DNA of 64,000 nucleotides from a virus. Taxonomy: Duplodnaviria > Heunggongvirae > Uroviricota > Caudoviricetes. The stretch spans positions 80,253 through 144,252 of the IMG/VR virus record IMGVR_UViG_3300013121_000049; one strand, written 5' to 3'. The position numbers and the translations under genes were made by a program. This document shows positions 2,708 through 59,473 of the stretch, piece after piece; the first letter of the stretch is position 1; each line of letters starts with the position of its first letter. The notes under the pieces were generated by a model. The model had not been told where the DNA came from. It was given only the letters and a program-made list of their open reading frames with translations, and ran no database searches.

Positions 2708-2743
2708 GCGGGAGGCTCCTCTGCATGGATCTAGTTTACACCA

Positions 2744-14575: not shown

Positions 14576-14635
14576 GGGCGGAAATACCTGTAAAAAAGAG
14601 GGGGAGCTCCTCCATTTTAGACGAAGCTCCTCGGT

Positions 14636-22992: not shown

Positions 22993-23001
22993 TGGTATAA
23001 G
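22993..23001 (+). promoter_or_regulatory. plus-strand copy of TGGTATAAG in a 28 nt gap between two minus-strand genes
   Basis: Exact motif, but it points into the antisense of gene 23004..23510. It may be coincidental or an antisense promoter. Confidence 0.2.
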
Positions 23002-23003
23002 GA

Positions 23004-23510
23004 TCAGGTCAGCGGAACCACGCGCCAACCGGTCTGACCCCCAACGAAGGTCACCAGGCAGGGGACGCTGATGTCCAGGTAGTAGGGCGCTGCGTCGCCC
23101 TGAATCGGCGCACTCGCCATCAGCTGGACGTTGTTGGTCTCCCAAGTGCCGATCAGGTTACCCGCCTGTCCCCGCGAAAACATCGCCGGGGTGATCAGGT
23201 GGGACGACCCGGACTTGTCGATTGCGTTGGGAAACAGCGTCACCACGATGCCGACCTGCGAGGTATCCGCCGAGATGTTCTCGCCTTCGGCCAGCACCGT
23301 ATCGGAGTTCTTGACCGGGAAGTCGCCGCGAATATCCACCATGGCGTTAGGGGAGATCGGCACGATCTTGCCTTGCCCCTGCGCCGTCTGTACGCTGGGA
23401 TCCTGATACTGCGCGTCGGTCAACGTGACCTTCTGGAGGTAGTTCAGGAACATCGCTCCGCCGAAGAGGCGGATGCCCTCCGTAACGACGCACTGGATGG
23501 ATTGGCTCAT
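23004..23510 (-). CDS. hypothetical structural protein (168 aa); first gene of the minus-strand structural operon
   Basis: ORF with a GGAGG ribosome-binding site. Confidence 0.6.
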   Translation of the reverse strand: MSQSIQCVVTEGIRLFGGAMFLNYLQKVTLTDAQYQDPSVQTAQGQGKIVPISPNAMVDIRGDFPVKNSDTVLAEGENISADTSQVGIVVTLFPNAIDKSGSSHLITPAMFSRGQAGNLIGTWETNNVQLMASAPIQGDAAPYYLDISVPCLVTFVGGQTGWRVVPLT

Positions 23511-23560
23511 GGGTACCTCCGGGCTACCTTTCCATTTTACAGCAGCGAAGAGGGGAATCC

Positions 23561-23818
23561 ATGTTCACCGACGCTGATATGCAGTTCATCCGCCGCCTGA
23601 AGGCCGGACAAATCGCCTGGGACGACCTCCCCGTCATCCTACAAGACACGTTGTTCGAATTCTTTCAGCCAAACATGCCCTACACTATTCAGAAAGCCAG
23701 GGACGACGATCCCGTCAACTGGATGACCAGACGCCTGCACTGGATTACGCACGATGGCCCGTCTCATGTCCTCCCGCCAGTTCAAGCACTGGCTGAATAC
23801 CTCCGTCCCTCACCGTAG
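23561..23818 (+). CDS. hypothetical protein (85 aa)
   Basis: ORF with a GAGGGG ribosome-binding site. It is the first gene of the plus-strand island. Confidence 0.5.
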   Translation: MFTDADMQFIRRLKAGQIAWDDLPVILQDTLFEFFQPNMPYTIQKARDDDPVNWMTRRLHWITHDGPSHVLPPVQALAEYLRPSP

Positions 23819-24062
23819 CGAGGCCGCCAACCAGCTCTTTGCCCGGGCGGTGGACAACGGCCGAACGATGGCCGAACAATTCCAGCACGAGCTGAGCGCG
23901 GATCGCCCGTTGGCGTTCACCGTACCCGGCCATGCCTTTTCCGTCGCCATGACGGCGTCATCCTACCTGATTTCCTACCGGTTCCTCGACGAAAGCGTCT
24001 GGACCGGTCAATCCCCGCTCCGCACGCACCGCAGCCTGGTGCTGGTGGAGCGCCGACCATGA
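23754..24062 (+). CDS. hypothetical protein (102 aa)
   Basis: Protein-like ORF that overlaps the previous gene by 65 nt in another frame. The ribosome-binding site is weak and the start is uncertain. Confidence 0.35.
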   Translation: MARLMSSRQFKHWLNTSVPHRSEAANQLFARAVDNGRTMAEQFQHELSADRPLAFTVPGHAFSVAMTASSYLISYRFLDESVWTGQSPLRTHRSLVLVERRP

Positions 24063-24069
24063 GGACTCC

Positions 24070-24414
24070 ATGAGCCAAGCCGACAAATATTTCTGGTTCC
24101 CGCACATCGACCGCATCACTCCCGACTACCCCGGATATACGGGGACCATCGAGACCAAGCACCTGCCTACCCTCCCGGGATACTGGGTAGTCCACCCGGA
24201 GAAGGGCTACCTGTTCTATCGCCTGTACATGGGCCCCAAGGGCGAAGTCACTGCGATGGTCAACGGCGATGAACGCACGGCCGAACGATTGCTCCTCTGG
24301 CTGAAACGACAGCCGATTCCCGGAATCGAAGACGCCCACCTGGCCTTCGTGCAGACAGGCTACTGCGAAAAAGCCTACCTCCACTTCCCTCACCACAAGG
24401 AAATCCCTTCATGA
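24070..24414 (+). CDS. hypothetical protein (114 aa)
   Basis: ORF with a GAGGA ribosome-binding site. It overlaps the DHH gene start as ATGA. Confidence 0.55.
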   Translation: MSQADKYFWFPHIDRITPDYPGYTGTIETKHLPTLPGYWVVHPEKGYLFYRLYMGPKGEVTAMVNGDERTAERLLLWLKRQPIPGIEDAHLAFVQTGYCEKAYLHFPHHKEIPS

Positions 24415-25319
24415 ATACCTCTCCCAAAACGGTCATCGTCTACCACGACAAATGCTTCGACGGCCTGGGCGCCCTGTGGGCCGTCCTGCGCAACCTGGAC
24501 TTCTCCGAAGACCTGGACGACGAAATCAACGACGGGTTGCTGATCCTACACGCCGCCAACTACGGTCAAGAACCGCCCGACGTCGCCGGCTGCGATGTCA
24601 TCATGGTGGACTTCAGCTATCCCCGCGACGTCATGGAACAGCTGATTGCCGATGCCAACTCCTTCATCTGCCTCGACCACCACAAGACCGCGCAGGAAGC
24701 GTTGGCTGGCCTTCCCGGCTGCCACTTCGACATGGACCAAAGCGGAGCCGGCATGGCCTGGCGGCACTTCGCCAAGCAGAGTGCCATGACTCCTTACTTC
24801 CTTTCCTACATCGAGGACCGCGACATCTGGCGCAAGGCGCTGCCTTGGACGGAGGAGGTCAATGCCTACATCGGCAGCATCGTCGACTTTGGCAGACCGG
24901 TGTTGGAAAACCTCTACGCCTTCGACCGCATCCAGGATATGACACCGCAGGAGATGGCGGGGATCGGCGGCCCGCTGCGTCGCGTCAACCTCAGCCACGT
25001 CGAATCCTGCGCGTCCATGTGGTTCTTCGTCACCCTGAAGAACGGCGTCGAGCTTCCCTGCGTCCTGGGCACGGCCAAGGTGGCCAGCGAAGTCGGCAAC
25101 CTGCTGTGCGCACACACCGACCTGGCCACGGCACTGGTCATCACCAGCGGCGGCGCCGGTCGCTTCGGCATGAGCTTCCGCTCGACGGCAGGAAAAGCAG
25201 CCGAACTGGCAAAACTGTACGGGGGCGGCGGTCACCTGAACGCGGCCGGCGCCAGCCTGGGGCCTGACGAGATCGGCGCCCTGCTGGCCACCCGGCGCGA
25301 GCGTCCGGAAAGTCAATAA
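24411..25319 (+). CDS. DHH-DHHA1 family phosphoesterase (NrnA or RecJ-like nanoRNase, or a cyclic or linear oligonucleotide phosphodiesterase)
   Basis: DHH motif FICLDHHKT. DHHA1 motif LYGGGGHLNAAGAS. Asp-rich N-terminal motifs (VYHDKCFDGLGA, VIMVDFS). Confidence 0.85.
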   Translation: MNTSPKTVIVYHDKCFDGLGALWAVLRNLDFSEDLDDEINDGLLILHAANYGQEPPDVAGCDVIMVDFSYPRDVMEQLIADANSFICLDHHKTAQEALAGLPGCHFDMDQSGAGMAWRHFAKQSAMTPYFLSYIEDRDIWRKALPWTEEVNAYIGSIVDFGRPVLENLYAFDRIQDMTPQEMAGIGGPLRRVNLSHVESCASMWFFVTLKNGVELPCVLGTAKVASEVGNLLCAHTDLATALVITSGGAGRFGMSFRSTAGKAAELAKLYGGGGHLNAAGASLGPDEIGALLATRRERPESQ

Positions 25320-25332
25320 CCGACAGGCCGAT

Positions 25333-25341
25333 TGGTATAAG
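25333..25341 (+). promoter_or_regulatory. promoter-like motif TGGTATAAG
   Basis: Lies 112 nt upstream of the small ORF at 25453. The leader contains the hairpin GGAGCctggtGCTCC. Confidence 0.45.
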
Positions 25342-25452
25342 GAGAATAGAGAGGAGCCTGGTGCTCCGATTACCCACGTCAAGCCTGAGCGTGGGGCCGC
25401 CGTCCGTGCCGATATCGAGCAACGGGTTGTCAGATGCTAAAGGAGCATAATC

Positions 25453-25581
25453 ATGGCCTACTTCACTATCATTACCACGTCCCTGCAAGTGATCACTGTT
25501 GCTGCAGCGTCTTTCCGCGACGCCATAACGGGGGCGGAAGCGCAGGGATACAAGGTCTCAGAATGCCGGGAGGCACGCTAA
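25453..25581 (+). CDS. small hypothetical protein (42 aa)
   Basis: A strong AAAGGAG ribosome-binding site lies 7 nt upstream of the ATG. A terminator follows immediately. Confidence 0.4.
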   Translation: MAYFTIITTSLQVITVAAASFRDAITGAEAQGYKVSECREAR

Positions 25582-25583
25582 GA

Positions 25584-25617
25584 CCGCGCCCCTCTTCGGA
25601 GGGGCGTTCACTTTTTT
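25584..25617 (+). terminator. intrinsic terminator (GCGCCCCTC-ttcg-GAGGGGCG followed by TTCACTTTTTT)
   Basis: A 9 bp GC-rich stem followed by a T-tract. Confidence 0.65.
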
Positions 25618-25645
25618 ACCCGCAACTTTCATTCCGGAGAAAGTC

Positions 25646-26095
25646 ATGAGCATCTCTTTCCTGCAGTTCTGGCTGCTCTGCGGACTGGCTACCCTCGCGG
25701 TGAGCCTGTTTGCATCGGCCTATGTCTTCGCCCGGGCGGTATCCGACCGGGCGGAATCCCTGCGCGGCGTCCGCTTGGGCGTCGTCGCCAACCTGGCTGT
25801 GGTCGTTTCGTCCACGATCATCTGCCTCATCGGCGGGCCGCTGGCGCTGGCGGCCTGCCTCACCCCGGCGACATGGAGATCCTGCCGGATGATTGCCTGC
25901 CACCCTCGCTTCAATGCGAGGGACGTATTGACCACGCTGGTGGTGGTCAAGGTCAAGGACGAGTACGTCATGGCGGATCAGAACCTCAGCCCCAACCCGC
26001 TGGACGGCGAGGTGTATACCTTGCCTGACGCCAGACGGCGCTATAAGCACGAACGCTACCAGTTCGTGCCGTTAGACCGCATCAAGGCGGTCTAA
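25646..26095 (+). CDS. membrane protein (149 aa) with an N-terminal transmembrane domain and a soluble C-terminal domain
   Basis: GGAGA ribosome-binding site. Hydrophobic N-terminus. It is the last gene before the bidirectional terminator. Confidence 0.6.
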   Translation: MSISFLQFWLLCGLATLAVSLFASAYVFARAVSDRAESLRGVRLGVVANLAVVVSSTIICLIGGPLALAACLTPATWRSCRMIACHPRFNARDVLTTLVVVKVKDEYVMADQNLSPNPLDGEVYTLPDARRRYKHERYQFVPLDRIKAV

Positions 26096-26135: not shown

Positions 26136-29100
26136 TTACCCGAGAGGTCGGACCCCATTGCTGACATCCGCCGGCGCGCTCATGCCCGCCTGGCTCTGGT
26201 ACTCGAAGGTCGTCTTCGAAAGGAAGTCCTCGACGCCCTGCGGGTAGAACTCGCTGGGCGGCAGGATGTACGGCGCGCTCTTCGGGTCGCCCTCGGCGTG
26301 GTTGTGGCTGACCGACTCGCCCGAAGCCTGCTTGTGGTGACTGCCGATGACGACCTCCTGGTTCTCGTGGACCTTGCCGGCCTTGAGCGCCGCCACGGCT
26401 TCCGCCTCTGTGGCGAAGTGCACGGTCTTCTGCGTCTCGTCCTTGCTGGTCAGATGTACGCTGCCCAGGATGGCCTCGTGGCCGGGCGCAAACATCGAGT
26501 AGCCGTAGCCCTTGCGCACGTCGTTGATGTGGTGCATTGGCAGCAGCTTGGCCTTGGCCTCGGCGATGGCTTCCGGCGTCATCGGCAAGTGCATGGTCAT
26601 GGCGTCGCCGTCGAAGTCCGCGCCGAACGCCGGCAAGTGCAGCGGATTCAGGCCGATCGTGTTTTCCTTGGTCGGCACCGGATAGATGGCCAGCTCGTTA
26701 GTCCGCAGCAGGGTCGGCGCGCGGTTCAGCAGCAGCGGGATGTCCTTGATGCAGCGGTTGAACGCATAGGTCGCCAGGTTGTCGCGCTTGGTGTAGGAAT
26801 CCAACGCCTCGGGCATCGACATGCCCTGCTTCGCCAGGAAACGCAGGATGTGGTACTTGTAGAGCACCCACAGCTGGTCCACCGGGATGCGGGCCTCGTT
26901 GAAGCCGACATCCGGGGCAGCATAGATCGTCGCCCGTCCCGAGAAGTTCTGCTTGCGCGCCAGCAACCGGTCATGAAACACCCCGGTCTTCGGCCCGCCT
27001 TCCCCGGCGATCTGCTTGATGAACCCCTTCAGCGGCTTCTTGGCGCCGATGTTGTCGCCCAAACCCATGATGGCCGCTGCGCCCTGATAGAGGTCCTTGC
27101 GCATGGGCACCAGGGCATCCGGCGTCGAATCCGCGAGGTTCTTCTTCAGGGTCTTGCTGACCAAGATGTGATCGTTGTACAGGTTGTTGACGTCCGCGAA
27201 GTGCAGACTGCCGCCGCCCTGATCCATGAAGGGGCGCATGACCGGGGGCAGCACGGGCATGTGCTTGATGACGTAGGCGTCCGCCGGGTTGGAGAATCCG
27301 CTCTTCTGCAGGCCGCGCAGGTACTTGGCGCGCTTCACCTCGTCATCTCGCGCCGATACCGACTTCAGGTTGACGGCGTTGTGCACGGAGGTCTTCAGCG
27401 CCTCGTCGACATCGATGTTGGCCAGCAACTCCTTGAACGCCTCGCCGCCCACCTTGATCTTGTCGTCGTTGTAGGCTTCGTCGGCGTCCGCCTTCTTGGT
27501 CATGCCGACACCGGTCTTGCCGATGTGAATATCCCGGACCTTGGACTGGTTCAGCGTGTCGTAGAGGCCGTAGTGTCCCGGCGCAATCTTCTGCACGCCG
27601 TAAGAGCCGTCAGTCAGCCGATCGAACTCGTCCGCGCTCAGCTTGAGCACCGACTTCACGGGCATCTCGAAGGTAGGGTTCACGATGGGCTCGGCCAACG
27701 TGTAGTGCGACCACTTGGTGCCCTCCGGGCCGCCGGTAATGATGGGGTCGAACATGCCGCCTTTCTCAGGCTGCAGGGTGCGCGCCAACAGGCGGCCCTC
27801 GTTGACCTCGCCGCCGCTCATCTCCAGGATCTTGTGGTCGGTCAGCGGGGCCAGCGTCACTTTGTCGTTGGCCGTGCGCACATCGATGCCGGCGCCCTTC
27901 AGGTAGCCCAAGAACTTGTCGGTGGCAAAGGTCGTCTTCGGCTTGGGAAGCGGCTCGCCATTCTGGAAGGCCTTCCAGAACTCCTCGTTCTTCTCGGCCT
28001 TGATGGTCGACATCTCCTGCAGGTTCTTGCGGGCGTTGGACCCCAGCAAGGCCAGGAATTCCATGTAGGCCGTCCGCTTGGATCCCTCTTCCCCGCCCTT
28101 GGACGGCTGGCGCCAGGAGTCATAGCCACCCTCGACGTTGCGGGCGCTGTAATTGGAGTCCGTGGTCTTGTAGGTCTTGACCACGTAATGCGGGCCGCCG
28201 AAGACCTTGGGCAACACCTTGCCGGAGACCGGATCCACCAGCACGTCATGCTGCTTGAGCCCGTGCGCCTTCAGCTCGTCCTTGATCTTGCGGACAGAGT
28301 CCCCGGCGTTCTCATAGTTGTGGACCACATACTGCTTGCCCGTCTTCTGGGCAATGCGACCGGCCGCCGTCTCCAGGACCGATCCCAGGTTGATCCGGGA
28401 GGTGACCGAAGCCGGGTTGAAGATGGCGTCGACGGGTTTCCCCGTCTCCTGGTTATAGGGCATCTGCTCGTCCGGGACGATCTTGGAGACCACGCCCTTG
28501 TTGCCATGAAAGCCGGTCAGCTTGTCGCCTACCTCCAGGTGCTTCACCGAGCGCGTCAGGATGCGAACCTCCTTGCCATCGGTGTGGGCCTCGATGACCT
28601 CGCCGGGCTCCTCGTGCGTCCAGTACTCCACGACTGCCAGGTACGGGGAAACCAGCTGCTTGCTGATGCGGTGGTACATCAGGTCGGTCGTGCTCATCGT
28701 GCGCGGCTTGAGCACCGCCCAGATGGGATCGCCGTAGCGCAGGGTCTGGCCTTTCTGGATGAAGCCGCGACTGTCCAGCTTGGCCAGCTGGTCGGACTTC
28801 AGCAGGGACGGGAACGTCTTGCGGAACAGCGCCCGATCGGTCTTCATGTCCGTCGTCAGGGACAGGTCGTACTTGTAGGCGTGGTGGCTGGACAGCTTCT
28901 CGGCCGCGCCTTGGCTGACCACGATGCCGTCTTCATGGTTGAAGCCGTGGTACGGCATGAAAGCCACGTTCAGGTTGCGGCCCAGCGCCAGTTCCCCGCC
29001 GCGCGTGTAGTTGCTGTCGTACAGGGACTGCCCCTTCTCGACGCGATCGCCCACCTTGACCAGCGGGGCCTCATCATCGCGGAACCCCTTCTGGTTGTAT

Positions 29101-30905
29101 GGCAGGTTGACCACGCGGGCGACCTTGGCCGTCTTCCCGTCATCCCCGCGGATCTCCATCCCGGTGTCGGTGATCTTGCTCACCGTGCCGCTCACCGGGC
29201 TGATCGTGGTCATGATCTTCCCATAGACCTTGGTGAACGGGACCTCCCTGCCGTTCCGGTCACGGGTGGCCGTGGTTACCAGCGGCGCCTCGCGGTCCTT
29301 CAGGGAGAGCGCCTGGACGATGGCCTTGCCCGCCATGGTCAGACGACCCGGATGGTCGGCGTTCATGAACGGCACCAGGTTGGTGGTGACCGTGTACATG
29401 TCCGTCGGCTTCTCCACCCAGTACTGGACCTTGGACTCCGGGACGTTCTTCAGGACGCCGTGATCCTGGGCCTGCACCAAGCCGTTCTTCTTGCCGATCG
29501 TGAACCCGATGCAAGCGTTCATGATCTGGGACGCCGACAGGTAGACCGAGCGCCCCTTGGTGTCCTTGAACCGGCCGTAAAGGTTGCCCTTGGCGTCGCG
29601 CGCCGAGTTGATGGCAAAGCGCAAGTCGACGCCCACCGTGTCGGCTTCCGGCGTCCGGCTGGGATCCAGGATGGTCAGGTGGGACGGGTCAATGTTGCGC
29701 GTCCGGACGTTGTTGGCTTTCTGCAGATCGATGCCGCCTTCCCCCTCGCCCAGAACGGTGACCTTGGCCACGTTCTCCAGGGACTCGATGGGGTTGGTTT
29801 CCGACGGCACGATCGACAGCGTGGACTTGGTCAGGAAGTTCTGCATGACCTTGTTGTAGGGCTTGGAGACCACGACCTTGCGGATCTTCGGCGTCTCCTT
29901 GGACAAGACGGCGCGGTCCAGCCCCCACTTGATCTTGCGGCTGGCGTCGCTGACGTTCTCGTGTTCGCGGCCCTGTTCAAACCGCCGGGCAATCAGGTCC
30001 GGGTAGCTCACGACCCGCTTGAACTGCAGGGAGTCGCGGTTGTCTTCCTCGCGCTCGCCCTTGTGGATGGCGATGATGTTGGCGGCGATACGCAGCAGGG
30101 CATCGCCATCCAGATGCCCAAAGGACTTGCCCAGGGTGACCTTGGTGCCGTCTTCATCCAGGGTACGCTTCTCCAGCCCGACCTTGATCCACTTGATCTT
30201 CTCGGCTTGCGCGGGGTCCGGGTTGGCCTTGCGCTGCTCGTACGGAGCCACCTTGCGATACAGGCGGTTGGCGATGCCGTCGCTATCCCCGGACTCCATC
30301 AGATCCTTGTCCCAGATGGCCGTGGGAATGTAGGCGGACGCTTTCTGCCGGTCGATGCCGAAGACGTGGCTGAGCACCCAGACCAGCGGCACGTTGATGT
30401 CGCCGCTGCTCAGGATCAACGTCTGCTTGCGCGGGTCCAGGGACACTTCCAGGGAGCCGCCGCCGGAGTTGATCTGGGCCATGACAGCGCCGTTGCTGCG
30501 CCGACGATGGTAGACGCCCTCCTTGAGCTGCAGGAGGTGGGAGATGACGTAGTTGTTGCCCTTGTAGACGACCGTGTGCTTGTCCGTCAGGTGAAAGCAG
30601 TCGGCCAGGGCGTAGTTCTTCTCTTCGTCGACCGTCTTCCCCGTCTGCTTGTCGATGATGCGCAGGGTGCCGCGCACCGGGAACGTCAGGGACTTCGATT
30701 CCAGGATCGCCTTCTTTTCGTCTTCCTTGTCGAACGTCTTGCGATCGATCGTGATGTCCGAGACCTCGATACGGTAGCGGGCGTTCTCGATGGGGAACTG
30801 CTTGCGCACGCCATCCACGATGGCCTGGCAAACATCGTTCAGCGTGCTGTCCGGAGACGAGATCATGTGCTTCAGCGGCTTGCCGTCGAGACTGGTCAGG
30901 CTCAT
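26136..30905 (-). CDS. DNA-directed RNA polymerase: a complete beta-like subunit fused to the N-terminal half of beta-prime (through the NADFDGD catalytic region), 1589 aa
   Basis: Beta-subunit blocks: [12 protein letters not shown] (compare GYNFEDSILVSE), [25 protein letters not shown] (compare [25 protein letters not shown]), and LGEGEGGID...TPEADTVGV. Beta-prime blocks: [16 protein letters not shown] and [25 protein letters not shown]. The start is at the ATG that forms an ATGA overlap with the upstream stop; a GTG at 30914 is an alternative. Confidence 0.92.
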   Translation of the reverse strand: [1589 protein letters not shown]

Positions 30906-31330
30906 AGTTGCCACCCCTCACCCGGTTCCTCGTCTTTCTTCGGCGTCTCGAAGACCACGCCCTCGTAGGGCGCATCCTTCGGCTCCAGATACGTCAGGAC
31001 GACGATCATCTCGCCCTCCTTGTTGAAGGATTCCTTGCGGTCCACCAGGTAGATCCGCGTGGTCTCCGAGTGGATACAGGCGTCCAGCAGGCTCTCCAGC
31101 ATCAGTTCCTGCTCGGCAAACCCGGACAGCAGGAACCGCTTGACCCGGAGCTTGTAGTCGGCCAGTTTGAACCCGGCCCGGCCGGGAGCCTTGTCCTTTA
31201 CCGCGGCTTCCTCGTCAAGGTTGCGCAGGGTGACCCCCGGCATGGCTGCCGAATAGTCCTGCAGACCGACTCCCGCGTTCTCCGGAAGGTTGGGGGCATT
31301 GACCCCCGGCGTCTTGTCACGCGGCGGCAT
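30902..31330 (-). CDS. hypothetical acidic protein (142 aa), translationally coupled to the RNA polymerase gene
   Basis: ORF 30902..31381, trimmed to the Met after the GGAGGA ribosome-binding site. Its stop overlaps the RNA polymerase start. Confidence 0.5.
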   Translation of the reverse strand: MPPRDKTPGVNAPNLPENAGVGLQDYSAAMPGVTLRNLDEEAAVKDKAPGRAGFKLADYKLRVKRFLLSGFAEQELMLESLLDACIHSETTRIYLVDRKESFNKEGEMIVVLTYLEPKDAPYEGVVFETPKKDEEPGEGWQL

Positions 31331-35397: not shown

Positions 35398-35441
35398 AGT
35401 CGGATCTCCGGAGGCGTCTTCTGATTTTACGCCTAAAAAGC

Positions 35442-40732: not shown

Positions 40733-41182
40733 ATGAGCATTACTGTTACCGCAAGCTTTGTGGAGACCCCGATCCTCCACGGCCTGCAGACCCTGCTAGC
40801 AGTGAATCACAGCCGCCGTCAGGCTTCTGTAGAGATCGGAGAATTCTTGACCGCAGCCTTCCCGGCAATCGCCGGGGCGGCTGCAAAAGAGTTCGACGTG
40901 GAAGAGTGCCAGCTCTTCCACGACGCAGCCCGAGCCGTCGGCCCGGACGTGGCGCAAGCCATGTGCGTCAAGCTGGACGCCATGCCCCCGAGCATGGTGA
41001 TACCGCATGCGGTTGCTTTCCTCCAGCGCGAGCTGGCGGCAAGCGACTGTGATGAGACCCTGCTCCTGAAAGGGGCGAGCCTCATTGATCGGGGCCTCCG
41101 TGCCAAGGCAGGGATCCTGCCCTGCGCGGAAGGCGCGGTGCACGGCATCCGCGCCGTGCGCCGCCTGCTGGAGGCCGCATGA
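40733..41182 (+). CDS. hypothetical protein (149 aa)
   Basis: ORF with an AAAGGAGAG ribosome-binding site. Confidence 0.55.
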   Translation: MSITVTASFVETPILHGLQTLLAVNHSRRQASVEIGEFLTAAFPAIAGAAAKEFDVEECQLFHDAARAVGPDVAQAMCVKLDAMPPSMVIPHAVAFLQRELAASDCDETLLLKGASLIDRGLRAKAGILPCAEGAVHGIRAVRRLLEAA

Positions 41183-41235
41183 ATTGGCCGGATGAAGACG
41201 ACGACGAGGCCCTAGACCTCGATGTCGTCTTCTGA
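41179..41235 (+). CDS. small acidic peptide (18 aa) MNWPDEDDDEALDLDVVF
   Basis: ATGA overlap with the upstream gene. A terminator follows. A paralogue lies at 43070..43147; it differs by synonymous changes (AAT/AAC, CCG/CCC, CTA/TTA), which indicates selection at the protein level. Confidence 0.35.
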   Translation: MNWPDEDDDEALDLDVVF

Positions 41236-41247
41236 CTCCCTCAATTC

Positions 41248-41271
41248 AGCCCGCCATGTGCGGGCTTTTTT
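41248..41271 (+). terminator. intrinsic terminator (AGCCCGC-catgt-GCGGGCT followed by TTTTT)
   Basis: A 7 bp GC stem followed by a T-tract. Confidence 0.7.
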
Positions 41272-41282
41272 AGCCCGAACAC

Positions 41283-41291
41283 GGGTATAAG
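41283..41291 (+). promoter_or_regulatory. promoter-like motif GGGTATAAG
   Basis: Lies directly after the terminator. It heads a 545 nt non-coding stretch before the ATG at 41834. Confidence 0.45.
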
Positions 41292-41812
41292 AAGCTAGAC
41301 ACCGAACTTTACCCCAGGCGGGGTACGGCGTGTCATGGCAAGGCCGGGCTCGGCACGGTCCGGCGGGGCTTGCAGAGGTTTGGCGAGGTGCGGCGTGGCA
41401 AGGACTTCTCACTGGGCTCGGCGAGTTCAGTGAGAAGTCCTTGAGGAAGGGTTTGGCTTGATCTGGTCAGGTTGGGCTGGGCGGGGTGTTGCTTGGAAAG
41501 GCAAGCCTGGGCTCGGCGAGGCAAGGCTAGGAGAGGCAAGGCGAGCCGGGGAATGGCAAAGCTTGGCAAGGCGTGGCAAGGCCCGGCATGGCGGGGCTCG
41601 GATAGGCACGGCATGGCTGGGTTAGGTACGGATTGGCATGGCGAGGGTTTCTCGCTGGGCTCGACGAGTTCAGCGAGAAACCCTTGGTGACTAGCACTAA
41701 TGATTATCTTCAATGGCGAGGTTCGGTCAGGTTTGGACAGGACGGGCTGGGTAAGGTAAGGCATGGCAAGGGCTTCGCCCGGAGCGGGAAACCACTCCGG
41801 GTTTTTCTTTTT
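41292..41812 (+). ncRNA. candidate structured non-coding RNA or long leader: GGCAAGGC/GGGCTCGGC-type short repeats, two covarying hairpins, and a 3' intrinsic terminator
   Basis: Hairpin 1, 41403-41439: GACTTCTCACTG-ggctcggcgagtt-CAGTGAGAAGTC. Hairpin 2, 41645-41683: GGGTTTCTCGCTG-ggctcgacgagtt-CAGCGAGAAACCC. The loops are near-identical and the stems differ but stay complementary. The terminator CCCGGAG...CTCCGGG plus TTTTTCTTTTT lies at 41778-41812. Confidence 0.4.
41778..41812 (+). terminator. intrinsic terminator or attenuator immediately upstream of the ribosome-binding site for gene 41834
   Basis: A 7 bp stem (CCCGGAG / CTCCGGG) followed by a T-tract. Confidence 0.6.
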
Positions 41813-41833
41813 CACACACAAAAGGAGGTCAGC

Positions 41834-42454
41834 ATGGCTGGCAAGAAGAAAGACGTGGTGGGCGATCCCACCAATGGCGGTGAAGAAAGCATTCTGGCTT
41901 CTGCGCCCTACACAGTTCGAGTTCAAATTACTGGAAGTGCGAAGTTTCTGTTTCACAGATGGAACTGCGAAAGCATTGAAGCCAAAGCAGCTGCGGCCAA
42001 GAACAGCGCCGCTAAGAGGACTGACGATACCGCGTCTTACGTTTACCGTGACGACGACGGCAATCTGTGCATCCCCGGCGAGTATCTGCGGCAGGCGATC
42101 ATTGCCGCCGCCAAGTACCGTCAGGATCCGCGCAGTCCGCGCAAGTCCATGATGGACATCACGAAGGCCGGCATCGTCAGCCTGACCGACTTGGCCAGCT
42201 TGGGTGTTCAGGATTGGGACTTCCTGGACAAGCGCCGGGTGGTCGTGCAACGCGCGGGCATCAACAGGACTCGGCCCGCCATGAACGCCGGGTGGTCAGC
42301 CGAGTTCGACTTGATGGTCGGACTTCCCGAATATTTCACTCCTGCACTGGTCAATGATCTGCTGGTAGACGCTGGCCGCCTGATCGGCATCGGCGACTTC
42401 CGGCCGACGTTTGGCCGATTCAACGTAACCCATTTTGAGGTGCTGACGAAATGA
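41834..42454 (+). CDS. hypothetical protein (206 aa)
   Basis: ORF 41633..42454, trimmed to the ATG at 41834 after an AAAGGAGG ribosome-binding site. The upstream part of the listed ORF is the repeat region. Confidence 0.6.
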   Translation: MAGKKKDVVGDPTNGGEESILASAPYTVRVQITGSAKFLFHRWNCESIEAKAAAAKNSAAKRTDDTASYVYRDDDGNLCIPGEYLRQAIIAAAKYRQDPRSPRKSMMDITKAGIVSLTDLASLGVQDWDFLDKRRVVVQRAGINRTRPAMNAGWSAEFDLMVGLPEYFTPALVNDLLVDAGRLIGIGDFRPTFGRFNVTHFEVLTK

Positions 42455-43086
42455 CCGCTCCCGCTTACTTCGCCCACACTTTGGGCGAATACAAGCTGCC
42501 CGCAGACGCGGCAGCCAAGCTCCACTCCGCCCCACGAGACCTGGGGAAGTTCATGCCGGTAGTCCTGGACTTGTGCGGGGAAGCCGCTGAATGGGCTACC
42601 ACCGCCCTGCTACACGTTCTCTCCGAGCTGCCGGATAAACTGGCAAAAGAGGTCGGCGTGACGGTTTCCATGGACGACCTCAAGACGTTCAACGCCGGCT
42701 TCCTGCTGTCCACCATCGAGCAGGAAATCCCCCGCGTGCAGGACTTCGGAGGAAAGGATGCCCGGGAAATCTCCTTGGACGACCTGGCCAGCGTCCTGCG
42801 GTTCACGGCGCTGCAGTCCAAGACAATGCTCCTGCACGAGGAACTCCTCGGCAAGACCATGCTGGACGACAGCGTCCACCCCGTGAAACGCTTGGCGGCG
42901 ATGACGCAGTTCAAGGAAGTTGGGGAAATGGCGGTCAAAGAATTCCTGAAGACGGTGCGGTGGTGCGACGTTCTGGCAGACCGCGCCAATCGCTCCGGAT
43001 TCGTCCGGGATACTCTGGAAGCTTTGCTGATCGAGAGCCTGGTAATGCCGCCCGGCGAGGAGGACAACCATGCAAGCGCACATTAA
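42451..43086 (+). CDS. hypothetical protein (211 aa)
   Basis: ORF with an ATGA overlap with the previous gene. Confidence 0.6.
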   Translation: MTAPAYFAHTLGEYKLPADAAAKLHSAPRDLGKFMPVVLDLCGEAAEWATTALLHVLSELPDKLAKEVGVTVSMDDLKTFNAGFLLSTIEQEIPRVQDFGGKDAREISLDDLASVLRFTALQSKTMLLHEELLGKTMLDDSVHPVKRLAAMTQFKEVGEMAVKEFLKTVRWCDVLADRANRSGFVRDTLEALLIESLVMPPGEEDNHASAH

Positions 43087-43147
43087 CTGGCCCCCGGAGC
43101 CCGAGGATAACGAGGATGACTCGTTAGACCTCGATGTCGTGGGCTGA
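43070..43147 (+). CDS. small acidic peptide (25 aa) MQAHINWPPEPEDNEDDSLDLDVVG
   Basis: Paralogue of the 41179 peptide. It overlaps the end of gene 42451..43086 in another frame. It is also antisense to the last 24 nt of the sigma factor gene. A terminator follows. Confidence 0.3.
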   Translation: MQAHINWPPEPEDNEDDSLDLDVVG

Positions 43148-44032
43148 CTCAACGACGGCCTCCTCCGGGAGGCCTTTTTTTACATAGAATTGCCGGATCT
43201 TGCGCATGGCCGCAGTCTGCAGACGACGGACCTCGGACACCGTGCACCCCATATCCTGAGACAGCTGACTGATACTCTGCTTGGCCGCGCCGGCCAGCTC
43301 GAACATCGCCGAAATGACGCGCCACTCCCGAGAGGAAAGCATGGCCTGCAGGCGCCCGCACAAGAGGTCGTCATCCATGCTCTGGATGAGGTCATCTGAG
43401 AAGTCGGCCACCGTGAGGGGGGCCAGGGTAATGTCTGATCGCGCAACGGCGTCATCAATGTCGGCAGAGGAGTGGCGAGAGGAGTGTGAAGACAGGATGC
43501 CGCGGAGGATGTCATCGATGTAGACGGTGACGTACAGGGTCTTTCGCAAGTTGGCGATGATCTCCGTACTGGTGGATGGCGCGCACCGCTGCTGAAGCTC
43601 GACATCCGTGATCCTGGGTTCCTTGGCCAGGATGTCGCGTATCTTCACGGCAAGCTGCTGCTGCCACACGGGGAGCTTGACCAGCCTGAGCTTCTGCTGC
43701 GTCCGCCACTGGCACTGGTTTACCCACCACCCGGCGTAGGTCAGGAACTTGTGCCCGCGCTTGTAGTCGAACCGCGACAGGGCGATACACAGACCTTCGT
43801 TCCCCGCCGCCACCAGTTCTTCGAACTCATAGGCACCCAGTTTACGAGCACGCAGCTTGGCCTGCTTGGCGACAAACATGATGCACGACCGGACGATCTT
43901 GTCGCGGGCCGCATCCTTTTTCCAGCGCGGCGCTTCCGGATCCTCCAGTGTGGCGAACAGAGACTGCTCCTCCTCCCGGCTCAAGGGCTTTTGTTTTGAA
44001 ACCAGGGTGAAATAGGAGGATATTGGATCCAC
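43124..44032 (-). CDS. sigma-70 family RNA polymerase sigma factor (302 aa)
   Basis: Region 2: IMFVAKQAKLRARKLGAYEFEELVAAGNEGLCIALSRFDYKRGHKFLTYAGWWVNQCQWRT, which has the FSTYATWWIRQAI-type pattern. Region 4: SSREWRVISAMFELAGAAKQSISQLSQDMGCTVSEVRRLQTAAMRKIR. The start is a GTG with a weak ribosome-binding site, so it is uncertain. Confidence 0.85.
   Translation of the reverse strand: MDPISSYFTLVSKQKPLSREEEQSLFATLEDPEAPRWKKDAARDKIVRSCIMFVAKQAKLRARKLGAYEFEELVAAGNEGLCIALSRFDYKRGHKFLTYAGWWVNQCQWRTQQKLRLVKLPVWQQQLAVKIRDILAKEPRITDVELQQRCAPSTSTEIIANLRKTLYVTVYIDDILRGILSSHSSRHSSADIDDAVARSDITLAPLTVADFSDDLIQSMDDDLLCGRLQAMLSSREWRVISAMFELAGAAKQSISQLSQDMGCTVSEVRRLQTAAMRKIRQFYVKKGLPEEAVVESAHDIEV
43157..43181 (+). 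terminator. intrinsic terminator (GGCCTCC-tccg-GGAGGCC followed by TTTTTTT), located inside the 3' coding region of the convergent sigma gene
   Basis: A 7 bp stem followed by a T7 tract. On the opposite strand the same bases encode ...KKGLPEEAVV of the sigma factor. Confidence 0.65.
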
Positions 44033-44096
44033 GTTTCTAATTGCCGTGTTCGCCGATCCGATCTAGCATATAGAGGCGATAACCTGGAGTAAATCC

Positions 44097-44312
44097 ATGC
44101 GCCTCAAGATAGAAAAACACCCGACCGAAAATAAGGGTCGAATCACCGTTGTTGCCGACAGCGACGACGAAAAAGTCAAACTGGACCTGCTGTTCCAGGC
44201 CCTGATGACCACCGCCCGCAAACAGGGCGAAATGACCTCCACCAATTCGTTCTCCGTACTGTTCGAGACCTCTCCCGAATGGAAGAACCCGGAAGGCGGG
44301 AGGCGGCCATGA
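44097..44312 (+). CDS. hypothetical protein (71 aa)
   Basis: ORF with a GGAG ribosome-binding site. Confidence 0.45.
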   Translation: MRLKIEKHPTENKGRITVVADSDDEKVKLDLLFQALMTTARKQGEMTSTNSFSVLFETSPEWKNPEGGRRP

Positions 44313-44725
44313 CAAACCTGCTTGCCCTCCTGGGGTTGCTGAGCGACGACATGCCGCCTGAGGCCAAGATCGCCATCGTGGCGCATGAAGTCAACCGCCT
44401 CTACTGCAAGGCGCAGCACATGGCCATACCCCCTGCCTGGATGGATCTTTCCGACAACCTGAAGAACAGCGCCATCATGGGCGTCCGCCTTCGCTTGGAG
44501 GACGGCGGCAAAGCCGATGCCGAGTTCTTTCACGGCGAGTGGATGAAAGCCAGGTTGGCGGACGGCTGGACCCTGGGGGACACCGTGGACCACCAAGCCA
44601 AGACGCACCCCTGCCTGCGTCCTTACAGCGAACTGCCGGAAGCCCAGCGTCGCAAGGATCTCATTTTTGACGCCGCCGTTCGCCTCGGCGCCCTGATTTT
44701 TCAGCCGGCGCAATCGCCGGTATAA
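44309..44725 (+). CDS. RyR (ryanodine-receptor) domain protein (138 aa)
   Basis: The sequence HEVNRLYCKAQ...FFHGEWMKARLADGWTLGDTVDHQAKTHPCLRPYSELPEAQRRKDL matches the phage RyR domain signature. The start is trimmed to the ATG that forms an ATGA overlap. Confidence 0.6.
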   Translation: MTNLLALLGLLSDDMPPEAKIAIVAHEVNRLYCKAQHMAIPPAWMDLSDNLKNSAIMGVRLRLEDGGKADAEFFHGEWMKARLADGWTLGDTVDHQAKTHPCLRPYSELPEAQRRKDLIFDAAVRLGALIFQPAQSPV

Positions 44726-52236: not shown

Positions 52237-52620
52237 CCGTTTCGGCTACCTCCGGCTACCTAACTGCTACTTCGCGTTTATCTTCAAGTAGCCGGGCAAA
52301 CCGTTGCGCCCCAACGGTTTCAGCTCTCCGGCTACCTCGGCTACCTCGGCTACCAAAAAAGTATGACGTCATATATACGTACATGTGCGCGTACGGTATT
52401 GACCGCCTAGTCACAGAAAAGTGTTGACATTCTCGTTTTCACTTGATCTAGGATTGTAGGACAATATATATCTCTTATATATATATAGTCTTTTTCAGAA
52501 AGTAGGTAGTAGAGGTAGCCCAAACGCTGAATCCCTTGCGCCCCAAAGATTTGCTCGGCTACCAAAAGGTAAAAACGAAGTAGCAATTAGGTAGCCGAGG
52601 TAGCCCGGCCTCGGGTATAA
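52237..52620. repeat. putative replication origin: GGCTACC iterons (direct and inverted, at least ten copies) flanking an AT-rich core at 52462-52486, plus palindromes TGACGTCA and TAGCCGtttCGGCTA
   Basis: CGGCTACCTCCGGCTACC at 52246. CCGGCTACCTCGGCTACCTCGGCTACC at 52327. GGTAGTAGAGGTAGCC at 52503. GGTAGCCGAGGTAGCC at 52589. Core AATATATATCTCTTATATATATATAG. A duplicated TTGCGCCCCAA. Lies immediately downstream of the primase-helicase gene. Confidence 0.55.
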
Positions 52621-52621
52621 G
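52613..52621 (+). promoter_or_regulatory. promoter-like motif GGGTATAAG
   Basis: Lies 20 nt upstream of the ATG at 52641, which has an AGGAGG ribosome-binding site. Confidence 0.45.
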
Positions 52622-52640
52622 AACGACAGGAGGCATCCTT

Positions 52641-58634: not shown

Positions 58635-59090
58635 ATGCTAGGGGGACTGTCCGACTGGACCCTCCCCATGCCCGCCATCGACACGAACCAGCCAGCCCTT
58701 ATCGGTGGGCAAACCGCAGTATTCATCCGCCAGGACCAGATCGGCCCTAACGTGGTCCTGTACTTTTGCAAACAGTCGTCGATCGAGGTGTCCCCTTTCA
58801 AGATCGACGGCACGCCGTACAGCGCCGGAGACATCGCCTTGATGGGGTTGTCCGGTGTAGCCAGCGATTCCCCGGTAGCCAATGGCAGCGCCAATACCGA
58901 CACGATCTACATCGTGATGCGGCGCGGCTCCTACAAGGTGGTCCATGATTTGAAGGAGGTGCTCGCCGAGAGCACCTTGCTCGGTGTTCGTCCGGAGGGG
59001 CTTCTTGAACTGCAGGTGGGACTGCTCAACGAAGCCCCGACGGCGATTCTCAGCGCGGAAGTGCTCAACGTCGATTCCGTCTTGCACTAG
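58635..59090 (+). CDS. hypothetical protein (151 aa), encoded between the two DNA polymerase fragments
   Basis: ORF 58563..59090, trimmed to the ATG at 58635. The ribosome-binding site is weak. Confidence 0.4.
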   Translation: MLGGLSDWTLPMPAIDTNQPALIGGQTAVFIRQDQIGPNVVLYFCKQSSIEVSPFKIDGTPYSAGDIALMGLSGVASDSPVANGSANTDTIYIVMRRGSYKVVHDLKEVLAESTLLGVRPEGLLELQVGLLNEAPTAILSAEVLNVDSVLH

Positions 59091-59415
59091 GCGGTTGGCC
59101 GTCGTCCTGGTAAGCCTCAATGAGCAGGCTCAGGACTTCCTCCAGCCGCTTTTCCGCCGCCAAGAGGCGATCGTCTACGGCCTTGTGGCGTAATGCCTCC
59201 ATTTCCTTGTAATGCTCGATGTGGGTGCGAAGCTCCTCTACGGTAGCTTCCACCCGGCTTTTCCACGTCTCCTCTTCGATCAGATCCTTCTTTTTTTGCC
59301 GGAAGTAATTCACGCCATTCCATAGGATGGTGACGACTCCCGAGATGAAGCCCACGATGGCGAGAACATACCCCATCAGGTCTTTTGTGGTATCAGGATT
59401 AGGAGGAGCAGCCAT
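59065..59415 (-). CDS. single-pass membrane protein with a cytoplasmic coiled coil (116 aa); the only minus-strand gene in the plus-strand replication cluster
   Basis: Transmembrane helix LMGYVLAIVGFISGVVTILW followed by charged heptad-like EEETWKSRVEATVEELRTHIEHYKEMEALRH. Confidence 0.5.
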   Translation of the reverse strand: MAAPPNPDTTKDLMGYVLAIVGFISGVVTILWNGVNYFRQKKKDLIEEETWKSRVEATVEELRTHIEHYKEMEALRHKAVDDRLLAAEKRLEEVLSLLIEAYQDDGQPPSARRNRR

Positions 59416-59473
59416 TTTTGCTAGCCTTTCTTGCGGGAGGTTTTGATGATTTTACCCCATAGGAGATGTCCGT

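Follow-up and report, generated by a model that had tools for sequence, protein, structure and literature searches.

In phages SPO1 (gp28, then gp33/34) and T4 (gp55 with gp33), an early sigma factor, itself expressed from a host-type promoter, diverts transcription to phage-specific promoters with no -35 element, the T4 late promoters (TATAAATA) being -10-only elements. To our knowledge, neither phage encodes a multisubunit RNA polymerase, and T4 gp55 is only region 2-like. A different arrangement is found in phiKZ and AR9, which possess phage polymerases of the beta/beta' type, one form of which is carried in the virion and which need an extra specificity subunit; there are two polymerase sets, each of 4-5 polypeptides, and gp68 and gp226 have no sequence similarity to sigma (PMC7598289, PMC7618050, PMC9209446). 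According to reviews, phages with a multisubunit polymerase have no sigma homologs, while those that encode a sigma have no polymerase (PMC7598289, PMC7824862, PMC13282480). The 64,000-nucleotide stretch of a Caudoviricetes genome described here (IMG/VR record IMGVR_UViG_3300013121_000049, positions 80,253 to 144,252; hereafter the window) carries both. As an earlier note made from the sequence alone had recognized, this one window holds a gene for a sigma-70-family sigma factor (43124-44032, minus strand) together with genes for a beta/beta' polymerase (26136-30914 and 5444-7267, minus strand). The note was right to find the combination worthy of attention: it contradicts the jumbo-phage reviews, yet it recurs in Salmonella phage Arash, in Vibrio phages D69, D181 and D148, and in dozens of IMG/VR contigs.

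Unlike T4 gp55, the sigma of the window is full length, and its clade has a beta/beta' core of its own and a second sigma. In contrast to phiKZ and AR9, a single polymerase set was found, made of two polypeptides that are much nearer to bacterial RpoB and RpoC, and true sigma-70 homologs are encoded beside it. Other phage members of the sigma-70 family, such as S-CBS3 rpsD4 and MaAM05 rpoD, share about 25% full-length identity with the window protein, but these phages lack a polymerase, their sigmas are thought to use the host core, and they display none of the synteny or motifs of the clade. Beyond these reviews and the Arash paper (PMC10585845), no other literature on the pairing of a phage sigma with a multisubunit polymerase was found. 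The pairing is a conserved hallmark of a large, mostly uncultured and essentially unstudied clade of myoviruses; and the combination of a polymerase, true sigmas, three promoter classes and an antisense micro-open reading frame (micro-ORF) is new relative to known phage sigmas and phage multisubunit polymerases.

The sigma factor and the phage polymerase

The gene and the approximate limits of its domains are as follows:
43124-44032, minus strand: sigma-70-family sigma factor gene, 302 amino acids, GTG start, no obvious Shine-Dalgarno sequence
Residues 1-40 (approximate): region 1.2
Residues 41-112 (approximate): region 2
Residues 113-175 (approximate): regions 3.0-3.1
Residues 176-222 (approximate): region 3.2 linker
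Residues 223-285 (approximate): region 4
Residues 286-302 (approximate): unconserved tail

Regions 2 and 4, which the earlier note had called recognizable, both score above the Pfam thresholds: Sigma70_r2 (PF04542) matches residues 67-106 with 28.2 bits (gathering cut-off 24), and Sigma70_r4 (PF04545) matches residues 232-281 with 26.5 bits (cut-off 24.1). Profile alignment from region 1.2 through region 4 reveals that regions 1.2, 3 and 3.2 are present too. The NCBIfam RpoS, RpoD and RpoH models align over nearly the full length (E 1e-22 to 1e-12), the sigma-70 superfamily model TIGR02937 gives 46.8 against a cut-off of 42.9, and PHROG 351, "RNA polymerase sigma factor," matches with an E value of 5e-24. 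With phmmer against the PDB, residues 16-298 align continuously with residues 74-337 of Pseudomonas aeruginosa RpoS (E 1.6e-18), across regions 1.2, 2, 3.0-3.1, the 3.2 linker, region 4 and a short C-terminal tail, residues 232-281 pairing with RpoS region 4.2. The AlphaFold2 (AF2) model is all-helical, with a predicted local distance difference test score (pLDDT) of 78; helices at 36-114 reach 80-96, sigma3 helices lie at 122-164, and the low-confidence segments are 168-171, 200-216 (in the linker) and 292-302 (in the tail). In the PDB the model matches best, across some 300 columns, with holoenzyme chains of sigmaS and sigmaA and with no other kind of protein. The protein is a complete sigma-70-family factor of group 2-like layout, extending from region 1.2 to region 4.2 and devoid of region 1.1.

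It resembles RpoS (PDB 7f0r_F, 5ipl_F) from end to end, in its short tail, its -10 aromatic residues, its fold and its length (302 against about 330 residues), but identity to RpoS is only about 22-25%, and every equivalog model scores it far under the cut-off (RpoS, TIGR02394: 79.4 bits against 378.7; RpoD_Cterm: 70.1 against 354). It is not an RpoS or RpoD ortholog. It also differs from group 2 sigmas in that Q406/E407 are replaced by Ala-Ala and the region 3.0 residues H455 and E458 by W and Q, and in a region 4 that evolves fast within the family. An NCBIfam match to the defence-system protein MzaA was rejected, as it reflects generic sigma similarity in what is a phage replication module.

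The protein is the ortholog of Arash gp196 (OQ632216.1; PMC10585845), and shares 35-37% identity over its N-terminal 175 residues with gp196 and with the D69, D181 and D148 homologs. Arash and the window have in common the AAGNEGL and LTYAGWWV.Q signatures, a sigma gene convergent with a helicase operon, a micro-ORF of the WNW type after the helicase, a portal and a polymerase about 10 kb away, and the same TGGTATAAG and TAAAAT promoter motifs. Arash gp196 is known by annotation alone. The subclade of the window differs in having 19 additional residues in the region 3.2 linker and a C-terminal tail in which the terminator and micro-ORF overlap is located. The window sigma thus adds a member to a family that has been annotated but not studied.

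In the family alignment, region 2 has a mean pairwise identity of 56% with 17 invariant columns, and regions 3.0-3.1 have 48% with nine. Region 4 falls to 28% and one invariant column, and the 3.2 linker (24%) and the tail (27%) are drifting. The signatures AAGN.GL, LTYAGWWV.Q and, in region 3.0, R.V..P...QQL are invariant in the alignment, kept in the 16 lineages paired with a polymerase, and all present in the window protein, whose region 3.0 segment LP.W.QQL is highly conserved. Y99, W102, W103 and Q106 (LTYAGWWVNQ) correspond to E. coli sigma70 Y430, W433, W434 and Q437, and these residues, which melt the -10 element, are invariant or nearly so throughout the family.

Two genes encode the polymerase:
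26136-30914, minus strand: large subunit of the RNA polymerase, a fusion of beta with the N-terminal half of beta', 1592 amino acids
5444-7267, minus strand: C-terminal half of beta', 607 amino acids; PHROGs 3015 and 2962; Pfam RNA_pol_Rpb1_5, 60.6 bits

The fusion protein aligns as a near full-length beta followed by beta' residues 150-567 or so. It retains the flap, a flap-tip-like segment and the clamp helices without gaps, as well as the catalytic motif ADFDGDA (NADFDGD in bacterial beta'). The polymerases of the window, Arash and D69 have lost the zinc-binding domain of beta' (E. coli residues ~66-97, four Cys), at a site corresponding to residues ~1060-1100 of the fusion. The closest beta subunits among isolates are those of Arash (49% identity) and of D69, D181 and D148 (46%), against 26-28% for bacterial RpoB and RpoC. 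There is no polymerase paralog within the window, and no alpha or omega subunit was found for this polymerase. It forms one set of two polypeptides, and Arash is likewise annotated with one beta and one beta', together with two sigmas.

In E. coli, the beta' changes R275Q, E295K and A302D and the sigma70 changes E407K and N409D impair the interaction of the two proteins (PMC3326312, PMC8321222). Region 2.2 of the window sigma has E in place of D403 and Ala in place of both Q406 and E407, and keeps G408, N409 and L412; in all of the 16 lineages checked, position 406 is Ala or Ser and position 407 is Ala. On the polymerase side, 16/16 lineages paired by contig have V, L, I, A or S at the position of beta' R275, and E295 is not kept. 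Both faces of the sigma2-clamp-helix interface have changed together relative to bacteria, which is compatible with a cognate pair of sigma and phage core. Covariation of sigma 407 with beta' 275 inside the clade was also considered and set aside: both are constant in class (Ala; small or hydrophobic), and only the contrast between clade and bacteria is informative.

The window is a myovirus segment of 60% guanine-plus-cytosine (GC) content. Its minus strand (~946-35397) encodes the tail sheath, virion proteins and portal, and its plus strand (35598-63897) helicases, primase, nuclease and DNA polymerase. Sigma is the sole clear minus-strand gene in this 28-kb replication block. The same lone orientation is seen in Arash and in four IMG/VR relatives (loci L007, L010, L012 and L013), but not in D69, where the gene is co-directional with its neighbours. 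In the window, these four loci and Arash, sigma converges with the helicase operon, and the portal and polymerase genes lie on its own strand some 6-10 kb off (in L007 the polymerase is at most 10 kb away). Among isolates, the best sigma matches are Arash, D69, D181 and D148, all of which also carry an annotated polymerase.

Searches of IMG/VR yielded 128 stretches with relatives of the sigma, of which 80 loci were kept, and 332 with relatives of the beta' N-terminal segment; the latter came from an alignment query, a single-sequence query giving one locus. Thirteen contigs were common to the sigma and beta' searches. The order sigma(+), helicases(-), portal(+), beta-beta'N polymerase(+) is found in 33/80 sigma loci. 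A further 35 contain helicase, primase or portal markers with no polymerase gene seen, and the remaining 12 (~29-58% GC) show no markers and may be unrelated sigmas. Many contigs of the clade measure 165-188 kb, and its phage genomes range from 37% to 60% GC. The 8 kb surrounding sigma had no megablast match in the phage collection.

Promoter classes and the role of the sigma

Three kinds of promoter motif occur in the window:
44067-44093, minus strand: candidate sigma promoter TTTACT-N15-TATATG, in the 64-bp divergent gap, unique in the window
41284-41291, plus strand: class A site GGTATAAG, the nearest upstream of the unit that terminates inside sigma
7973, 22994, 25334, 35444, 40683, 44719, 46392 and 52614, plus strand: other class A sites
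63418, plus strand: class A variant GGTATAAA
33099-33105, minus strand: class B site GTAAAAT, 27 nucleotides upstream of the portal ATG, heading an operon of portal, a 142-residue gene and RNA polymerase
23534-23540, 35424-35430 and 59449-59455, minus strand: other class B sites
14612-14619, minus strand: class B variant TAAAATGG
2731-2739, minus strand: class B variant GTAAACTAG

The sigma gene itself has neither a class A nor a class B motif. Its candidate promoter reads TTTACT-N16-TATATC in L007 and L010, and approaches the sigma70 consensus elsewhere: TTGACA-16-TATAAT in L012 (12/12 positions, the best match in 19.6 kb), TTGACT-18-TATAAT in L013 (11/12) and TTGACT-17-TACTAT in Arash. Across 29 loci, 20 have TTGAC[ATG] spaced 16-18 nucleotides from TAnnnT upstream of sigma (17 nucleotides in 17 of them), and the best sigma70-type match upstream of the gene has a median rank in the top 3% of 130-nucleotide windows of its locus. 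As the gene is insulated by its orientation and has a host-type promoter, sigma is probably an early product. In Arash, the motifs suggest a host-type early promoter class to which the sigma gene would belong. Another part of that genome (L104, Arash 46-54 kb) has strong TTGACA-17-TAnnnT promoters at tRNA clusters and small genes, with seven on that strand and none on the other over 44 kb. The GenBank start of Arash gp196 (L001, 5818-6855) apparently lies about 59 codons too far upstream: the part homologous to the other sigmas starts at MGLTKYYEE (locus position 5995), and TTGACT-17-TACTAT falls inside the annotated N-terminus.

Class A (GGTATAAG, usually TGGTATAAG) is found nine times in the window against 0.33 expected, on the plus strand only. 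Eight of these nine sites are intergenic, and seven stand 23-153 nucleotides upstream of a plus-strand gene. Over 110 kb of Arash, 20 sites lie on the strand of the non-structural genes and one on the other, directly upstream of gp9 and the gp10 sigma. In 21 IMG/VR loci, GGTATAAG is the top enriched 8-mer, with 101 occurrences opposite sigma and two on the sigma strand (7.2 expected per strand); in D69 the counterpart is TGTTATAAG. No -35 element accompanies the class A sites, and the window motifs are, like the T4 late promoters, -10-only elements. The invariant G at -7 of class A would be disfavoured by host sigma70. One site (22994-23001, plus strand) is placed between two minus-strand structural genes and runs antisense through 23004-23510, pointing toward a plus-strand island at ~23560-26095; the next called plus-strand gene is 771 nucleotides away. 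If active, this site would yield a transcript antisense to a late gene.

Class B (TAAAAT, often (G/C)TAAAAT(A/G)) is located 24-35 nucleotides upstream of the ATG of structural genes. It heads the portal-polymerase operon in both the window and Arash, as well as the Arash beta' gene, and precedes the portal gene in 10/10 loci of the close subclade. The raw GTAAAAT count in the window is not significant alone; the signal of this class resides in position and strand. In a distant subclade (L057, L058, L061, L068, L071 and L090), GGTATAAG and TAAAAT are missing and CCTATTATTT is found about 30-40 nucleotides upstream of the portal; k-mer enrichment gave no promoter-like 8-mer there. Since CCTATTATTT stands in for the two motifs, the promoters seem to change together with the sigma subclade.

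The second sigma of the clade belongs to a shorter family, with STHVYNW as region 2.3 and a match to Pfam Sigma70_r3, and is embedded in the structural module. Two members are:
L020, 4779-5621: gp10-like sigma (P0044)
L002, 11892-12596: Arash gp10

No gp10-like sigma was found in the window by tblastn. L020 has 60.4% GC and is collinear with Arash gp6-gp14, and the window phage probably has such a gene too, outside the window. As sources of that gene, L017 and L019 were discarded, being clearly other lineages (47% GC). A class A site before the gp10-like sigma is not a general feature either: it is present in Arash only and absent from L017, L019 and L020. The virion proteome of Arash comprises the gp10 sigma (234 amino acids), beta (gp206) and beta' (gp216), and does not list gp196; the paper makes no mention of gp196 and reports no promoters (PMC10585845).

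How, then, might the phage use this factor? In the account that we prefer, and hold to be fairly probable as a whole, sigma would be made early, most simply through transcription by the host sigma70 holoenzyme, and would act as an exchangeable specificity subunit, guiding a core polymerase to those phage promoters in which the -35 element is missing. Its partner would then be the phage's own beta/beta' rather than the host core, an assignment toward which we lean to about the same degree, because there is a single polymerase set for two sigmas, the docking modules are kept and the changes at the interface are paired. As for its targets, the chances seem about even that the sigma prefers the extended -10-like TGGTATAAG sites before the replication genes, with the late TAAAAT class a less probable choice. 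Class A is favoured because regions 2 and 3.0 are conserved and region 4 is not, because an extended -10-like element with G at -7 should be poor for host sigma70, and because the sole structural-strand class A site of Arash precedes gp9 and the gp10 sigma.

Several points weigh against this account. In the high-GC subclade, which includes the window, the promoter of sigma is a weak match to the consensus (TTTACT-N15-TATATG in the window), and a GTG start with no Shine-Dalgarno sequence before it points to low expression. Late-type TAAAAT promoters precede the polymerase genes of both the window and Arash, so that a sigma made early would meet the host core first unless polymerase is delivered by the virion. 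Region 2.2 retains N409 and an acidic residue at 403, so that sigma may bind the host core as well. The gp10-like sigma could itself read either the TGGTATAAG or the TAAAAT class. Finally, the "virion" proteome of Arash lists 88 re-annotated structural proteins plus enzymes such as ribonucleotide reductase, and for the enzymes found in particles its authors raise the carry-over of abundant infection proteins (PMC10585845).

The alternative that survives best, to be taken seriously although we incline away from it, reverses the order of the two sigmas. Virion-borne polymerase with the gp10-like sigma would first transcribe the TGGTATAAG genes, and the product of 43124-44032 would then take the place of that sigma and read the TAAAAT promoters that precede structural and polymerase genes. 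This is what one would expect if the presence of gp10, beta and beta' in the Arash virion proteome and the absence of gp196 are taken at face value, and both the gp10-like sigma and the polymerase genes sit in structural operons. Moreover, TAAAAT is a canonical TAnnnT, suited to the conserved Y/W/W/Q, whereas region 2.3 of the gp10 type is deviant (STHVYNW); and the motif precedes the portal without exception in the close subclade. Conversely, the conserved region 3.0 (LP.W.QQL) suits contact with an extended -10 such as the TGG of TGGTATAAG, the lone structural-strand GGTATAAG of Arash would put the gp10 sigma itself downstream of the TGGTATAAG class, and the virion proteome may be contaminated.

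A second alternative, which appears rather doubtful, is hijacking of the classical kind: sigma would bind the host core only, as SPO1 gp28 and T4 gp55 do, and the phage polymerase would use the gp10-like sigma or none. All characterized phage sigma factors work, as far as we know, on the host core. With its host-type promoter, sigma would be produced at a time when the host core is the one core sure to be available; the promoters of the polymerase genes are of the late type; and G408, N409, L412 and the acidic residue at 403 are retained in region 2.2. Against this, E407 has become Ala throughout the family, at a position where E407K alters the sigma70-core interaction in E. coli (PMC3326312, PMC8321222). 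The linkage of sigma with the phage polymerase is strict across genomes from 37% to 60% GC, both modules for the docking of sigma survive in the phage polymerase, with changes that match, and the one polymerase set found goes with two encoded sigmas in Arash.

The convergent 3' end of the sigma gene

Opposite the end of the sigma gene lie a terminator and a very short ORF, both of which have a counterpart some 2 kb away:
43157-43181, plus strand: intrinsic terminator GGCCTCC-TCCG-GGAGGCC followed by T7, with a 7-bp GC stem (-18 kcal/mol)
43070-43147, plus strand: acidic micro-ORF MQAHINWPPEPEDNEDDSLDLDVVG, 25 amino acids, with the Shine-Dalgarno sequence GAGGAGG at 43057-43063
41179-41272, plus strand: paralogous module, with micro-ORF MNWPDEDDDEALDLDVVF at 41179-41235 and a terminator at 41248-41272

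That the last 60 nucleotides or so of sigma pass through this terminator and this acidic ORF had been pointed out from the sequence, and the overlaps indeed amount to 58 and 24 nucleotides. The terminator is wholly within the sigma ORF, in its last 20 codons, and its T-run is the antisense of conserved Lys-Lys codons. The micro-ORF ends with a stop codon nine nucleotides before the terminator stem. The long coding sequences do not overlap, the 211-residue plus-strand gene 42451-43086 ending 37 nucleotides short of sigma. The two modules (43070-43181 and 41179-41272) are 77% identical in DNA; their stem sequences differ, with stem and T-run preserved. They share the exact 16-mer TAGACCTCGATGTCGT, the opposite strand of which encodes the last codons of sigma (DIEV) and its stop. 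In the paralogous module, the start codon of the micro-ORF overlaps the stop of gene 40733-41182 as ATGA.

Two further members of the high-GC subclade were sampled, L007 and L010, and their sigmas are 42-43% identical to that of the window. Both repeat the sigma-terminator overlap and have a micro-ORF at the same place (MCGFNWDDCEGEDTSLSYSGPDED and ...ICFNWDECEGDESSLQYSSPDED, that of L010 being called by the source gene caller), each with its own GGTATAAG promoter and a strong hairpin within the sigma 3' end. Seven codons are identical between the two micro-ORFs, eight are synonymous and six are non-synonymous and mostly conservative; this pattern argues for selection at the protein level. A back-translated DNA pattern of the micro-ORF retrieved the L007 contig only from IMG/VR. 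More distantly, the gap between helicase and sigma contains WNW-type micro-ORFs in 13 further loci, examples being the Arash-like MNIWNWGYFPNGDEDED, ..LWNWDFWPNS in L012 and MIWNWDFWPVE in L030. The loci with such micro-ORFs are L001 (Arash 6952-7092), L012, L025, L027, L029, L030, L033, L035, L037, L046-L048, L050, L052 and L053. The family begins with an N-terminal (I/L)WNW(G/D)x(F/W)P. In Arash, where it is unannotated, its start is coupled to the stop of helicase gp197c by an ATGA overlap. Its conservation marks the acidic micro-ORF as a genuine small gene.

Downstream of the sigma stop codon, a search for a minus-strand terminator returned only weak consensus matches, and for this reason sigma transcripts probably run antisense into 42451-43086. 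Overlap of the sigma and plus-strand transcripts is likely on the layout of the genes. A bidirectional role for the terminator at 43157-43181 was considered and rejected, since the hairpin, read on the minus strand, has GUCGUUGAG after it and comes before the sigma stop.

A regulatory role of this overlap is possible. Convergent plus-strand transcription may, speculatively, dampen sigma expression once active, and if the class A promoters depend on sigma, a negative feedback could result. A stronger proposition develops the antisense or collision control raised in the earlier note: the overlap would be a device dedicated to controlling sigma, whose levels would be set by antisense RNA or by colliding polymerases from the plus-strand unit, with translation of the micro-ORF perhaps modulating the outcome (its stop lies 5-12 nucleotides from the hairpin). 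This seems unlikely to us. It can call on the convergence of sigma and helicase operon in nearly all loci, on the micro-ORF and strong hairpin inside the sigma 3' end in the window, L007 and L010, on the GGTATAAG promoter that in L007 and L010 is directed into that end from immediately downstream, and on the lack of a minus-strand terminator after the stop. However, in Arash, L012 and L013 the genes are convergent and do not overlap (in Arash, 96 nucleotides separate the sigma stop from the micro-ORF), and a hairpin with a T-run should halt most plus-strand transcripts at no more than 58 nucleotides of overlap. The overlapped part of sigma is, besides, the non-conserved tail after region 4.2, predicted to be disordered (pLDDT <50). 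Because the overlap is absent from distant relatives and the tail is unconserved and of such low pLDDT, the arrangement looks like the overprinting of a dispensable tail by terminator and micro-ORF, and not necessarily like a control device.

We would put only limited trust in a broader scheme that joins these elements. In it, one phage core would be served by two sigma-70-type sigmas in place of the two polymerases of phiKZ: the gp10-like sigma packaged in the virion with the polymerase, and the 43124-44032 sigma made after infection from its host-type promoter and reprogramming the phage's own core. The WNW/NW micro-ORF and its hairpin would be a feedback element coupling translation and termination of the convergent unit (TGGTATAAG-driven in relatives, with the stop 5-12 nucleotides from the stem) to sigma expression. 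Highly improbable, last, is that sigma is a decaying remnant, or a decoy that sequesters other proteins and does not initiate: its equivalog scores (79 against 379 bits for RpoS), its GTG start without a Shine-Dalgarno sequence and its poorly conserved region 4 might be read that way, but the ORF is intact, 17 columns of region 2 are invariant among members about 30% identical, the DNA-melting aromatics are all kept, synteny is maintained in more than 30 lineages, and the modelled fold is confidently that of a sigma.

Neighbouring features and significance

Immediately upstream of sigma, on the other strand, 44309-44725 encodes a RyR-domain protein (Pfam PF02026, 44 bits), a position conserved in L003, L007 and L010. 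Directly after the primase gene comes a 404-bp non-coding gap (52237-52640) that looks like a replication origin: it contains about 10 iterons GGCTACC(T) in two inverted clusters, whose 94-nucleotide arms are 78% complementary and which stand on either side of an AT-rich core holding (TA)n palindromes as well as TTGACC/TTGACA hexamers, and it ends in GGTATAAG. The 650-bp gap between genes 40733-41182 and 41834-42454 is occupied at 41300-41830 by degenerate tandem repeats of 5, 10 and 20 nucleotides, of the GGCAA/GGCTCGG type. In the near-identical contig L003, the same two called genes are 195 nucleotides apart, but an upstream start is used there; the L003 call, of 273 amino acids, matches the window ORF starting at 41633, 450 nucleotides from 41182. 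The length of the repeat array may vary between contigs. A possible second lone minus-strand gene in the plus-strand block (59065-59376, 103 amino acids) has a weak coding score; the GTAAAAT at 59449-59455 (minus strand) is about 70 nucleotides upstream of its start and also precedes, by 19 nucleotides and on the opposite strand, the DNA polymerase gene of the plus strand. A scan of the whole window with Rfam gave no family match.

Reviews split large phages into those with a polymerase and no sigma and those with a sigma and no polymerase, and the clade described here has both. It comprises hundreds of IMG/VR contigs, many of them just below the 200-kb cut-off of "jumbo" phages, which is maybe why it was overlooked. 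The conserved gene for an 18-45-residue WNW micro-protein defines a new family of small genes whose genomic position is fixed, and with three clear promoter classes and many canonical terminators, a temporal programme could be tested directly in cultured Arash. If the sigma does work on the phage core, the system would be a minimal and tractable machine of the bacterial type, with two core polypeptides and exchangeable sigmas, and would bear on the evolution of sigma-core recognition and on the origins of viral polymerases. Should one core prove to be shared by two sigmas, this would be the first of the viral multisubunit polymerases for which the use of bona fide sigma factors is shown.

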